Shown: positions 5,473 through 58,202, numbered from the stretch's first letter. The stretch is DNA of 64,000 nucleotides from Candidatus Heimdallarchaeum aukensis (GCA_021513695.1 CP084166.1:1600001-1664000), one strand, 5' to 3'. Program-made: numbers and translations. Notes: generated by a model from the sequence alone, not told the origin.

Positions 5473-6114
5473 ATGACCTCTAGAACTTCAACGAACGGTC
5501 TATTTTTAGTTATTGAAGGAATCGATGGTGTAGGTAAAACTACTCAAGCAAAGAAGCTAGTTGAGTTCCTAAAGTCCAAGAAGATAAAAGCTGAATATAC
5601 AACTGAGCCTACTCACTGGAGCATTTATGGAAAAAAGTTGAGAGAGAGTTTTTTTGCCCCAGAAAGACTATCTGTTGAAGAAGAATTTAGACTTTTTTTA
5701 GAAGATAGAAAGGAACATATTGCAAAAGAAGTACTACCACTTATAGAGCAAGAGACAATAGTTGTATGTGATAGATATTACTTTTCATCTGCTGCATATC
5801 AGGGATCTAGAGGACTAGATTGGAAATATATTCTAGAAGAAAATATGAAGGTTGTTCCACCTCCAGATATTACATTTTTAATTGACATTCCTGTAGAAAA
5901 AGCAATAGATAGAATATCTAATGGAAGAGCGGGAAAAATCAATACCTTTGAGAAAAGAGAGAATCTCATCAAAGTAAGGAAAATTTACCATAAGATTGCT
6001 CAAGAGTTCAGTGATTTAATAGTCGTAATAGATGGAACAGATAGTATAGAAGCAGTTCATGAGTTAATAATTAAGAACTTAAAACCTAAACTTTTGGAAA
6101 AAAACTTAATTTAA
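5473..6114 (+). CDS. tmk: thymidylate kinase
   Basis: P-loop IEGIDGVGKTTQ and the DRY motif (CDRYYFS) are present. The protein is 213 aa. Confidence 0.85.
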   Translation: MTSRTSTNGLFLVIEGIDGVGKTTQAKKLVEFLKSKKIKAEYTTEPTHWSIYGKKLRESFFAPERLSVEEEFRLFLEDRKEHIAKEVLPLIEQETIVVCDRYYFSSAAYQGSRGLDWKYILEENMKVVPPPDITFLIDIPVEKAIDRISNGRAGKINTFEKRENLIKVRKIYHKIAQEFSDLIVVIDGTDSIEAVHELIIKNLKPKLLEKNLI

Positions 6115-54492: not shown

Positions 54493-56310
54493 TTACCATG
54501 CCCACCATTTATCAACATTTTTCCTCTTTATCTCAATTAGCTCATCTAAACATTTAGATTGGTCTTGTGTTAAAGACTCACCATATTTCTTTTTCAGTAA
54601 CCTTACATGTCTCTCCGGAATATCAACATAAAGAATATCACCCTCATGAATTTGTCGACCAACAGTTGGTCCTCTGATACTCATAGCAACTTGTTGACCT
54701 TTTTTTGCTTCTTGTATGTTTTCTCCTCTATCCTGAAGACCATGAATTCTTCCAACCCGTCTATTATCTTCTCGAATTAACATTGAACCAGTGTTTATTT
54801 TACCAGCTAATACCTCTATTCCAACTATCGCAGGATTTGATCTACGAAATACGTATCCTTGTAATATTTCTAATTTAGCGGGCATAATTATATCTTTCAG
54901 AGATTCAGCTTTTATAGACTCTTTAACATCTTCTTTCCAGCGATCATATTCATCTATCAAATTATAGATAACTCTATCAGAAAAAATCTTGATATCGTTG
55001 ATTGAAGCTTCTTCTTCTGCATCGGGAAGCAATTCTGTATTAAAACATAATACTGCACCATACTCTGGAGCTTTTTCAGCCACTATTGCTGCATCAATAA
55101 TATCTTTTTTAGTAACTTCACCCACATTAGCTTTTTGAATGGGTATATTTCTACTTTTTAACATGTCAACAATTGCTTCTAAACTACCAAGAGTATCAAC
55201 TTTTACGATTACTCCGTTTTCTTCAGTATCAAAAACAAACTGTTGAAGTTCTGCATTAACTTCATCAATAACTTGTTGCTCTTTGCCTTTAGGAGCTACT
55301 CGTACAGGAGCCCCTGCTAGAACATCTTCTAAACCAGGAGCACTTATTTTTAAACCAGCAGAAGCATAAACTTTATCTACATTTCTAAATTTATCTCGAG
55401 GATCACGCATCTCATCAAGTTCTTTAGCTTGGAGGAGTGCTCGTATCTTTACTAATTTAGCTCCTCCTCTTCCTCCTATAACAACTTGGTCATTTTTTGT
55501 AATTACACCATCATATAAGATGATGTCAGCTGTTGTTCCCATACCTTCAACATCTTTTACTTCTAATACTGTACCAGAACCAGGCCCAGTACTGTATTCT
55601 AGTTTTTTCATCATAAATTGTTGTGTTAAACCTGCTAAAACCAAAAACAAGTCGGGTATTCCTTCTCCTGTAACTGCACTTGTAGGAATGATTGCTATTT
55701 TCTTTCTAAAATCTTTCACACGGTCATAACGATCAGCTTCAAATTTTAATTCACTTAACTCTCCCATTATTTCATAAATTCTGTTATCAAGATCCTGTTT
55801 AGCTTTAGGTATTTGTTTATTATAAGACTCAATGAAAGTAGCTCCTTCTATCCCTTTCCAAGCTGAGATTCTATCAATTTTGTTTGCAGCAACAATAAAG
55901 GGTACTTTTCTTGCCTTTAAAATATCCATTGATTCATAAGTCTGAGCTTGAAACCCTCGAGTTAAGTCAACAACTAATATTGCAATATCTGCAACAGAAG
56001 CTCCTCTTTTTCTCAGATTTGTGAAAACAGCATGTCCAGGAGTATCAACAATGAGTATTCCAGGAATATTTAACTCTATTTTAGAATTTTTCATTAATTT
56101 ACTACTTACTTTTACAATCGTTTCTGTTGGAAAAAAACTTGCCCCAACATGTTGTGTGATACCTGCTGCTTCTCTAGCTTGAACAGCAGTTCCCCTTACC
56201 TTATCTAAAAGACTAGTTTTTCCAGAATCAACATGCCCAAGAATAACAGCTATTGGGCTTCGAATTCTCTTTCCACTTTCTTCATTTACAACTTTAGACA
56301 ATAGAAACAC
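54493..56310 (-). CDS. infB: translation initiation factor aIF5B (IF-2 homologue)
   Basis: G1 reads GHVDSGKTSLLD, G3 reads DTPGH and G4 reads NKID. The protein is 605 aa with domains II-IV. Confidence 0.9.
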   Translation of the reverse strand: MFLLSKVVNEESGKRIRSPIAVILGHVDSGKTSLLDKVRGTAVQAREAAGITQHVGASFFPTETIVKVSSKLMKNSKIELNIPGILIVDTPGHAVFTNLRKRGASVADIAILVVDLTRGFQAQTYESMDILKARKVPFIVAANKIDRISAWKGIEGATFIESYNKQIPKAKQDLDNRIYEIMGELSELKFEADRYDRVKDFRKKIAIIPTSAVTGEGIPDLFLVLAGLTQQFMMKKLEYSTGPGSGTVLEVKDVEGMGTTADIILYDGVITKNDQVVIGGRGGAKLVKIRALLQAKELDEMRDPRDKFRNVDKVYASAGLKISAPGLEDVLAGAPVRVAPKGKEQQVIDEVNAELQQFVFDTEENGVIVKVDTLGSLEAIVDMLKSRNIPIQKANVGEVTKKDIIDAAIVAEKAPEYGAVLCFNTELLPDAEEEASINDIKIFSDRVIYNLIDEYDRWKEDVKESIKAESLKDIIMPAKLEILQGYVFRRSNPAIVGIEVLAGKINTGSMLIREDNRRVGRIHGLQDRGENIQEAKKGQQVAMSIRGPTVGRQIHEGDILYVDIPERHVRLLKKKYGESLTQDQSKCLDELIEIKRKNVDKWWAW

Positions 56311-56441
56311 CTTTCTTTTTTCTTTTACTCTTATTTCTGTTTATTTCTCTTTTTTTAAAAATAAATTGGTCTGTTATACTTTATTAAAAAAAACAACAAT
56401 GAAGAAAAAAGAAAAAAAATTAAGAACAAAAGATTATAAAT

Positions 56442-56612
56442 CTAAAGATCTCTTGCACTTACAGTTTTACGTCCGTTGGCTTTAGCTCTTTCAGCTGCTT
56501 TCTTGACAATTCCTTCAACAAGTTTGTCAAGAGCATCAAAGAGGTCTCCACCAACTTTGTAATCACCAAGTTCCTTGATGAGTTCTCTTACTTTACTTTT
56601 TACGACAATCAT
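56442..56612 (-). CDS. short histone-fold protein (56 aa; archaeal histone-like with truncated alpha-3) - not in the supplied ORF track
   Basis: The reverse-strand translation is MIVVKSKVRELIKELGDYKVGGDLFDALDKLVEGIVKKAAERAKANGRKTVSARDL. ...ERAKANGRKTVSARDL aligns with the archaeal histone L2-alpha-3 block ...KHAGRKTIKAEDI. The alpha-1/loop/alpha-2 pattern is preserved, but alpha-3 is cut after DL. Confidence 0.45.
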   Translation of the reverse strand: MIVVKSKVRELIKELGDYKVGGDLFDALDKLVEGIVKKAAERAKANGRKTVSARDL

Positions 56613-56906
56613 TTTTTTGTCACCTTATGCTTTGTGCCTTGCGTTTTTCACGCAAGTACGATAAATACTATTACAGAGCCCCTTAAAAAGGTTTTTGGTT
56701 TAGCCATCTTTTTTTAAAACCTTACGCTATCTAGTAAAAAAAGCCGACAATAATTGCCCTACATTCAAAAAATTCCAGTTTGAGCGAGTTTTGTCCTCTA
56801 ATTTTAATGAGGTTCGATTTAAAAGGATATAAAAAAGAATAACAATAAAAATAAAAAATATGTGGTTTTAGAGGTTTTAATGATATTTCATTATATTGCA
56901 ACAAGG

Positions 56907-58202
56907 TTATACGTGTTTAGTAAGCAATTCGCCTAGTTTTCTTACTCCTTCATCCAACAGTTCTGGATTAAGGAAGGAAAAGCCTATTCTCATTCCTCCT
57001 TTAATTACTTTTAGAGGTACAATAGTTCTCGTCTCCAAATCATAGGAATACCCAACGGGGGGATAAAATGCAGCTCCAGGAACAACTAGTACATCATTAG
57101 GTAGAAGAATATCTTGGTTAAACTTTCCGACATCAAAAGAATAAGCTTTTTCATCAGGTGCTTGCCACCAGATAAAGAAACCACCAGTAGGATTTGTATA
57201 ATCCCCTTCTGGAAAAGTATCTTGTAATGCCTTAAAAGCCACATCTTTTTGTTTTTTATACTTTTGAACAATTTCAGGTAAATAGGTATCAATATATTTG
57301 GCATAATATATTTCAGCAACTCTTTGAGTTAAAGTAGGAGTACAAAGGTCTATATAACCTTTTGATTTTTCTGCTTCTAAATGCAGATGCTCTGGCATTA
57401 GAGAATAACCTATTCTAAGAGGTGCAGCTTCTTTTGATGTTGAAGAGACATAAATAACCCATTCATTATCCTTATCCAAAGACTTGATTGGAGGAATACG
57501 CTCAGTAAATTGCATTTCTTTATAAGCTTCATCTTCTAAAATGAAAACATTGTATTTCTCAGCGAGATCATACAGGGCCTTTCTCCTTTCATAAGGTAAA
57601 GTAGTCCCTTTTGGATTGTCGCTATCACTTACAACATATAGAAGCTTAACTTTTTTGCCTAATTCCTTTTCTGCTTTAACAATTGTATCCTCAACAGCTT
57701 CTGGTATAAGCCCAAATTCATCTGTGGGAGCAGTTACAACTGTTCCTCCAATTTTTACAACCGCTGTGACAAATCCTAGATATGCAGGACTGGGGGTTAT
57801 AACTATATCTCCAGGGTTTACTAATATATCAAGAACAAGATAAGTGGCTTGTTGTGACCCTGTTGTAATTAACATTTTTTCCCAATCTTGTTTTCCTGAG
57901 ATACATGAAATTTTATCTTTAACATGTAATCTTTCAGCTAAAACTTCTCTTAATCCCTTGGCTCCAGCAGTCATACCATATTGAAATTCATTAATAACTC
58001 TTTTTTCATCCTCTTTGTAATATTCTGATAACTCATCTAAAATTTTAGGAAATACTTTAGTAGGTAAATTGCCGGGAAGACCACCAGCTAAATAATACTT
58101 TGTTTTATTTTTTAATAAGCGTCTAATCTCAGATTCTGGTATTTTTTTGGTCCAATCGGCAAGCAATTCTCTTGTTGATTCTATATTTCTCATTGCGTCC
58201 AA
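56907..58202 (-). CDS. class I/II PLP aminotransferase (2-aminoadipate/aromatic aminotransferase-like)
   Basis: Aminotransferase fold pattern, 431 aa, SSTSKEAAPLRIGY (the SxSK lysine), and no HTH. Confidence 0.7.
   Translation of the reverse strand: MDAMRNIESTRELLADWTKKIPESEIRRLLKNKTKYYLAGGLPGNLPTKVFPKILDELSEYYKEDEKRVINEFQYGMTAGAKGLREVLAERLHVKDKISCISGKQDWEKMLITTGSQQATYLVLDILVNPGDIVITPSPAYLGFVTAVVKIGGTVVTAPTDEFGLIPEAVEDTIVKAEKELGKKVKLLYVVSDSDNPKGTTLPYERRKALYDLAEKYNVFILEDEAYKEMQFTERIPPIKSLDKDNEWVIYVSSTSKEAAPLRIGYSLMPEHLHLEAEKSKGYIDLCTPTLTQRVAEIYYAKYIDTYLPEIVQKYKKQKDVAFKALQDTFPEGDYTNPTGGFFIWWQAPDEKAYSFDVGKFNQDILLPNDVLVVPGAAFYPPVGYSYDLETRTIVPLKVIKGGMRIGFSFLNPELLDEGVRKLGELLTKHV

Follow-up and report, generated by a model that had tools for sequence, protein, structure and literature searches.

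The window analysed here is a stretch of 64,000 nucleotides from Candidatus Heimdallarchaeum aukensis (GCA_021513695.1, CP084166.1:1600001-1664000), with a G+C content of 32.5%. Its minus strand contains an open reading frame (ORF) of 171 nt, including an ATG start and a TAG stop, which was translated from the window into a protein of 56 amino acids. This ORF had been proposed in an earlier reading of the same DNA made by a model without database searches (the sequence-only reading), and the product quoted there is matched exactly by the translation. The gene had also been described as unannotated, which is correct with respect to the list of ORFs of at least 60 aa, but the identical 56-aa sequence is held by NCBI, UniRef and JGI as a 'DUF1931 domain-containing protein' of Ca. 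Heimdallarchaeum. Together with its flanks, the gene appears to form a cassette ordered as BRE/TATA promoter, stem-loop at the predicted mRNA 5' end, Shine-Dalgarno element, coding sequence (CDS) and oligo-T terminators (Table 1).

The in-frame TAA codon upstream of the gene leaves the ATG at position 56612 as the sole possible start. GGTG-type motifs were found at a comparable distance from the ATG in four other loci (L012, L015, L081 and L161). The orthologue from Ca. H. endolithica PR6 (P0001) has been called as a 69-aa protein with an N-terminal extension (MKNARHKAYGDKK-), which is read through a TAT codon (at about 5986-5988 of the PR6 locus, L001) at the place of the TAA of the window. 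Such an extension, present also in an 86-aa call (P0002), was rejected, because the TAA of the window is in frame and the 'extension' is translated promoter and hairpin region; with the upstream frame closed in the window, the genuine product is the 56-aa form. The gene is thus missed or given a wrong start by gene finders and ORF-length cut-offs, as in the two extended calls. Downstream of the stop codon, translation of all three frames yielded F/L-rich junk with stops and no α3-like peptide, and a frameshift that would restore a full α3 was rejected.

Table 1. Positions of the features of the histone cassette and of related loci. Positions are those of the window unless a locus or residues are named.
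Feature	Position	Strand	Basis or remark
CDS of face-to-face (FtF; α3-truncated) histone	56442..56612	(-)	ORF, PDB homology, invariant residues, AF2, Foldseek
Protein layout	residues: α1 5-15, L1 16-21, α2 22-45, L2 with R48-K49-T50, residual α3 S52-L56		
Shine-Dalgarno-like AGGTGA	56620-56625	(-)	7 nt before ATG; read from sequence
In-frame TAA stop	56625-56627	(-)	4 codons upstream of ATG; overlaps Shine-Dalgarno; closes frame
Leader block AAAACCGACAGAAGTGC/GCACAAAGCATAAGGTGAC	56613-56637 (alignment A2 columns 93-118)		
Stem-loop CTTGCGT-gaaaa-ACGCAAG	56638-56656	(-)	7-bp stem, 5-nt loop, about -10.5 kcal/mol as RNA
Predicted transcription start (+/-2 nt)	56657	(-)	purine after pyrimidine, 24 nt past TATA-like octamer
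BRE/TATA-like block CCAAAAACC-TTTTTAAG	56682-56698	(-)	invariant or near-invariant columns of upstream alignment
Oligo-T tracts T8, T6, T8	56386-56419	(-)	begin 23 nt past stop codon
Conserved island	56386-56750	(-)	against L001 5865-6220
Inverted cassette region	L161 3001-3261 and 3421-4707		GCA_054001415.1
Tandem FtF copies	L081 869-1036 and 1361-1416		

The sequence-only reading assigned the product to the histone fold, with an α1/L1/α2/L2 layout and a GRKT motif in L2, and PDB matches, sequence alignment, an AF2 model and Foldseek all agree with this assignment. The homology is real, but the canonical profiles score it under their curated cut-offs: Pfam CBFD_NFYB_HMF gave E = 0.001 and 19.7 bits (cut-off 21.4), and NCBIfam archaea_histone gave 33.5 bits (cut-off 50). 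Phmmer searches of the PDB gave full-length matches to HBb (8FVX/8CMP, E = 1.5e-10) and HTkC (9F2C, E = 8e-9), and weak matches to HMfA/B (E of about 0.08-0.6, with 0.08 for HMfA). The AF2 model (59 homologues; pLDDT 93.8) contains α1 and an α2 of 24 residues, and DSSP assigned no helix after residue 45. All top Foldseek matches of the model were histones, namely HTkC (TM-score 0.93-0.95, rmsd 0.7-0.8 Å, 42-44% identity), HBb (about 0.9), HLp (0.90) and nucleosomal histones (0.63-0.77). The proposed shortening of α3 to a few residues was likewise borne out by the AF2 model lacking a helix after L2, by the same end point in homologues and by the lack of a continuation in any frame.

When the window protein was aligned with 58 homologues from databases (59 sequences), only five columns proved invariant, namely R42, N46, R48, T50 and D55. 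These comprise the tetramerisation Arg (R42, which aligns with R45 of HTkC by the offsets of the PDB alignment), the tetramerisation Asn (N46) and the RxTxxxxD motif (R48, T50 and D55). Nearly all homologues are 53-58 aa long with a common end point, and in all alignment rows shown, except P0063 and P0065, the chain ends one residue past D55; in the window protein, D55 is followed by L56 and the stop codon, six residues beyond the L2 Thr. α2 is shorter than in nucleosomal histones, as seen from a 4-residue gap when it is aligned with HmvA and 1F1E. α3-truncated histones have been defined by an α3 of 3-4 residues, compared with about 10 residues in nucleosomal histones, and by an α2 that is 4-5 residues shorter than the nucleosomal one (Schwab et al., 2024; PMC11390915). 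In the same work, the FtF signature was given for Haloferax volcanii D4GZE0 as R41, N45, R47, T49 and D54, and FtF histones were described as closed toroidal tetramers, confirmed by the crystal structure of HTkC. The spacing of R42/N46/R48/T50/D55 is that of the published signature, which places the protein in the FtF category of the α3-truncated superfamily. It differs from the nucleosomal class in missing both curated cut-offs and lacking α3, and from DUF1931 pseudodimers in having 56 residues, a single fold and a Pfam DUF1931 (PF09123) score of 16.0 bits, below the gathering cut-off of 21.8 (E = 0.014, profile positions 22-53 of 138). Overall, the 56-aa gene very probably encodes an FtF histone of the α3-truncated superfamily, and its product would be a self-closing, DNA-wrapping tetramer by homology to HTkC and HLp. 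The short α3 is an ancient defining feature of FtF histones and not a degenerate state.

By E-value and identity, the closest solved sequence is dimeric HBb (50% identity), above tetrameric HTkC (42-44%). As the best PDB sequence match (48-50% identity over the alignments), HBb suggests another possibility, namely that no wrapping tetramer forms and that the protein, remaining dimeric, bends DNA in the manner of HU/IHF, and the R45A mutant of HTkC shows that one residue can separate dimer from tetramer behaviour. However, bacterial dimer histones are defined by the missing tetramerisation Arg and Asn, replaced by S and D in HBb, whereas R42 and N46 are present here and invariant across the alignment; the dimer class has, moreover, been reported from bacteria only. 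Despite the better E-value of HBb, the presence of R42 and N46 thus indicates the FtF type and not the HBb type, and a dimeric histone at this locus is improbable.

The sequence-only reading also suggested that a truncated paralogue could cap hypernucleosomes and thereby limit oligomerisation. Such a protein would heterodimerise or stack with full-length nucleosomal histones and end hypernucleosome growth for want of α3. Truncation does remove the interface that serves hypernucleosome extension, and the interaction between FtF and nucleosomal histones has been called an open question for HTkC in the literature. Nevertheless, the truncation in this family is of ancient origin and linked with a self-closing tetramer, a self-contained ring inside which both interfaces are used, and FtF histones wrap and compact DNA on their own, HTkC and HLp wrapping it round the tetramer. 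FtF histones but no nucleosomal ones have been reported for H. volcanii, Heimdallarchaeota LC2 and the Heimdallarchaeia MAG KowaHeim1, and α3-truncated histones are abundant in the KowaHeim1 metaproteome; the lack of nucleosomal histones in these related Heimdallarchaeia would leave nothing to cap. In the 64-kb window, phmmer with HMfA, HMfB, HTkC and HBb against stop-to-stop ORFs of at least 30 aa found no other histone. In 287 kb of related Heimdall loci, phmmer with HMfA, HMfB and the window protein found orthologues and one tandem copy and nothing else, so that a nucleosomal histone ORF was absent from both. Within the scope of the window and the related loci, the cap model is unlikely for the Heimdallarchaeum FtF histone, and very little credence is left for a capstone acting on nucleosomal partners. 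What would survive of the suggested limit on oligomerisation is a limit on the protein's own assembly, at the tetramer; it would not limit other histones. Finally, an artefact, be it a small ORF that arose by chance or a full-length histone that was frameshifted or pseudogenised, as the short length and the sub-threshold Pfam and NCBIfam scores might suggest, is scarcely credible when hundreds of homologues share length and end point, the sole CDS difference from PR6 is synonymous, no α3-like peptide follows the stop in any frame, and the gene has its own promoter, Shine-Dalgarno element and terminator.

The assembly expected of an FtF histone at this locus can be outlined from HTkC. In HTkC, R45 forms a salt bridge with the opposing dimer's C-terminal carboxylate; the R45A mutation converts the tetramer to a dimer, and a C-terminal extension should disrupt this bridge. 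The HTkC ring takes up both dimer-dimer interfaces, so that further dimers cannot join. By analogy, two chains of the Heimdallarchaeum protein would form a histone-fold dimer via crossed α2 helices, and two dimers would form a closed, planar toroidal tetramer. The free carboxylate of L56 would form a salt bridge to R42 of the opposing dimer, which it could reach because the chain stops one residue past D55. Hydrogen bonds between N46 and R48 would lie at the dimer-dimer interface, on its front side, and R48 and D55 should form the usual RxTxxxxD clamp. With both interfaces consumed in the ring, the protein could not polymerise into a hypernucleosome. The DNA contacts of HTkC (K7, S8, K9, K11, R22, V23, K52 and T53) map to K5, S6, K7, R9, K19, V20, K49 and T50, of which six are identical and two are K/R-conservative. 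The tetramer may thus bind DNA via the minor groove, without sequence preference, through the N-terminal end of α1 (K5, S6, K7 and R9), L1 (K19 and V20) and L2 (K49 and T50). HLp, a bacterial FtF histone, is a stable tetramer that wraps about 60 bp, and the Heimdallarchaeum tetramer would wrap roughly 60 bp around itself. For tetramer formation and DNA wrapping, as for abundance, the expectation for the Heimdallarchaeum protein is drawn from its relatives.

Comparison with characterised histones reveals both shared and distinctive features. Archaeal FtF HTkC (Thermococcus kodakarensis, PDB 9F2C and 9T30) has the same length class and fold, shares the tetramerisation Arg (R45, equivalent to R42) and has equal spacing between the L2 Thr and the C-terminus. 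At the positions of the family-typical N46 and D55 of the Heimdallarchaeum protein, however, it carries E49 and H58, so that details of the interface differ; this replacement frees R51 of HTkC to touch DNA. In addition, T. kodakarensis carries nucleosomal histones HTkA/B. H. volcanii D4GZE0 (HVO_0196), compared by published residue numbers only, has the identical signature and the same end after the Asp. Bacterial FtF HLp (Leptospira perolatii, PDB 9QT0-2) has the same fold with a TM-score of 0.90 at only 33% identity, and bacterial FtF histones usually have a basic N-terminal tail, unlike the Heimdallarchaeum protein. The dimer histone HBb (Bd0055; Bdellovibrio bacteriovorus, PDB 8FVX, 8CMP and 9EZZ) shares the truncated α3 and the RKT motif. 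Nucleosomal HMfA/B and HHoB have the histone fold, RxTxxxxD and the L1/L2 logic of DNA binding in common with the window protein, but they have a 10-residue α3 and an α2 about 4 residues longer, and polymerise into open hypernucleosomes; HHoB and the related HPhA gave TM-scores of 0.74-0.77 to the AF2 model. The DUF1931 (PF09123) pseudodimers Aq_328 and TTHA1013 show weak local similarity over α2-L2. DUF1931 pseudodimeric histones have about 140 residues and two fused folds, without DNA-binding residues. Because the window protein is a 56-residue single fold with DNA-binding residues, the public 'DUF1931' label is a misnomer that points to the wrong histone class.

The protein is of an already known kind, and its sequence is already catalogued. 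FtF histones have been a defined class since 2024, and the solution of their structure and mechanism followed in 2024-2025. The representative alignment of Hu et al. (2025) lists a Ca. H. endolithica histone, A0A9Y1FPJ9, beside HTkC and D4GZE0, and through this entry the Heimdallarchaeum protein itself apparently stands in a published alignment. The pattern RAKANGRKT was found at 512 confirmed loci among GTDB species representatives, spanning Heimdall, DPANN and other archaea and some bacteria, and the shorter pattern RAKANGRK at a minimum of 438 loci in metagenomes. The protein itself adds nothing new to knowledge of FtF histones, although it may rank among the main chromatin proteins in a lineage close to eukaryotes. 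As a side observation, the representative of the 90%-identity cluster that includes the 56-aa histone is an unrelated 382-aa PLP-enzyme-like protein. Cluster members of 382 and 315 aa (among P0069, P0072 and P0073) were considered as fusions and rejected as unrelated PLP-enzyme-like proteins, indicative of a clustering artefact that could mislead automated annotation.

The conservation of the locus was observed at the DNA level. The flanking 10 kb are 87.4% identical to the complete genome of the sister species Ca. H. endolithica PR6 (CP084167.1), and the neighbouring proteins are 79-96% identical, whereas the CDS is identical at 170/171 nt, with a single synonymous change. About 135 nt before the ATG are about 98% identical to PR6, and about 48 nt after the stop are near-identical. 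Very strong purifying selection on the CDS would fit a major, highly expressed chromatin protein, with the abundance taken from relatives. Apart from this, an island of about 355 nt (promoter, leader, CDS and first T-tracts) was noticed to be 98-99% identical to PR6 in surroundings of 87%, which points either to extreme purifying selection on both coding and non-coding DNA or to the cassette having recently recombined between species.

The aminotransferase gene upstream is a conserved neighbour, and adjacency to aIF5B is found in the genus only. In a third Heimdallarchaeum-like genome (L161; GCA_054001415.1, JBMXSF010000080.1), the histone cassette has an inverted orientation with respect to the aminotransferase gene and adjoins genes for NDK and ribosomal proteins L24e, S28e and L7Ae, and it keeps the TATA block, the hairpin CTTGCA-gaaaa-TGCAAG, the GGTGA motif and the T-tracts. 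No operon is implied in view of this inversion, and a functional link or operon with the neighbours was rejected on the basis of the inversion and of the restriction of aIF5B adjacency to the genus. On a metagenome contig (L081), a second FtF histone copy lies in tandem about 325 nt downstream of the first, and the contig ends inside it. The second copy has its own promoter block, stem-loop (CTTGC-ctaga-GCAAG) and Shine-Dalgarno element.

The BRE/TATA-like block holds the invariant or near-invariant columns of an alignment of 21 Heimdall upstream regions, and its Heimdall consensus is CCGAAAAGG-TTTTTAAT. In Pyrococcus furiosus, the promoter consensus consists of a BRE at -36 to -32, a TATA box at -30 to -23, an AT-rich melted region at -11 to -2 and an initiator YR at -1/+1 (PMC6640164). 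The transcription start was placed by fitting this consensus to the alignment, as a position given by spacing and not by mapping. The predicted +1 lies 0-2 nt from the first base of the stem and the predicted leader is about 45 nt long, so that the stem-loop would start at the mRNA 5' end or no more than about 2 nt away from it. Downstream, the T8/T6/T8 tracts are likely to be an archaeal-type terminator, ending a monocistronic unit of about 240-270 nt, and T-runs hold the same position in L161 and L081. A scan for bacterial-type promoters and terminators found no terminator, but its models are bacterial and uninformative for an archaeon. The BRE/TATA block, the T-tracts and the conserved flanks point to a self-contained monocistronic cassette. 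On the 3' side of the hairpin, the leader of loci outside Heimdallarchaeum (L002-L026) carries a highly conserved block, AAAACCGACAGAAGTGC, in place of which the window and PR6 carry GCACAAAGCATAAGGTGAC, which contains a better Shine-Dalgarno.

The leader stem-loop is the only possibly new feature of the locus. The sequence-only reading gave its sequence correctly but located it at 56634-56652, four bases off, and its distance from the start was given as about 20 nt, when 25 nt in fact separate its 3' end from the ATG. Taken alone, the window hairpin is unremarkable, being equalled by 4-9% of shuffled 75-mers, and an Rfam scan of 56300-56910 gave no match near any gathering score. The stem-loop is, however, kept at the same position in at least 30 Heimdall loci, in 23 distinct sequence versions, and is present in all examined Heimdall loci except L087, whose upstream context differs. 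It accompanies the histone gene through the inversion in L161 and the tandem duplication in L081. Across the alignment, 94.6-95.9% of cells are paired, compared with 10-45% when partners are slid, and 3-4 of 5-6 pairs are changed on both sides. The covariation score is 0.24-0.26, compared with 0.18 in shuffles, and was reached by 0/500 shuffles. Pair 6 is G-C, U-A, C-G or A-U in different lineages, and G.U intermediates (L083) connect the CTTGCC/GGCAAG and CTTACC/GGTAAG forms. RNAalifold predicted this helix alone on the 128-column upstream alignment, and all 24 versions fold as a hairpin (-3.2 to -10.5 kcal/mol).

The preferred reading is that of a 5'-terminal RNA stem-loop, which would influence how stable the mRNA of a highly expressed gene is or how it is translated. 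It could serve as a 5'-terminal protective hairpin, or it could be bound by the histone itself or by an RNA-binding protein. The further step, that it is a dedicated post-transcriptional control element for a major chromatin protein in Heimdallarchaeia, is put forward tentatively.

A serious rival is that the inverted repeat acts as DNA, as a palindrome over the start site that serves a dimeric transcription factor as operator; this possibility is also rated as doubtful. The repeat overlaps the predicted start site, which is a classic position for archaeal repressors, and symmetric half-sites could co-vary too. Folding energies do not discriminate between the strands: the sense strand is not favoured, with means of -7.1 and -6.8 kcal/mol and greater stability in 10/24 versions. 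On the other hand, the loop varies from 3 to 7 nt, a poor fit to a fixed half-site spacing, and the arms vary while pairing stays, with all four Watson-Crick types at pair 6. G.U intermediates occur in L083, L085 and L018, and pairs 0-5 show nine G.U cells on the sense strand against one A.C cell. It is this count, together with the variable loop length, that favours RNA.

Stem-loop control is known from eukaryotic histone mRNAs, and Heimdallarchaeia lie within the archaeal lineage closest to eukaryotes. If the leader element were indeed a control element, it would form a functional, non-homologous parallel to the eukaryotic case. If functional, the stem-loop would offer a first handle on the expression control of such a histone in Asgard archaea.

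Hairpins were also observed in the 75 nt upstream of FtF genes in L027-L080 (DPANN, Chloroflexota, Planctomycetota and others), where the best ones are only slightly stronger than those of shuffled sequences (6.2 as against 5.3). In these loci, 12/15 stems of at least 7 bp end 15-35 nt before the ATG, although the cases are not independent; an example is AATTTTGCC-ttcaatt-GGYGRAATT in L059, L076 and L079. FtF histone genes may carry leader hairpins more widely, read with the same non-independence in mind. A last observation concerns the 605-aa aIF5B-like ORF next to the cassette (window 56299-56311, minus strand), which is listed from a GTG at 56310 that lies within a GGTG motif. An in-frame TTG is found at 56301, 6 nt after the GTG motif, and the true start of this ORF is probably the TTG, three codons downstream of the GTG.
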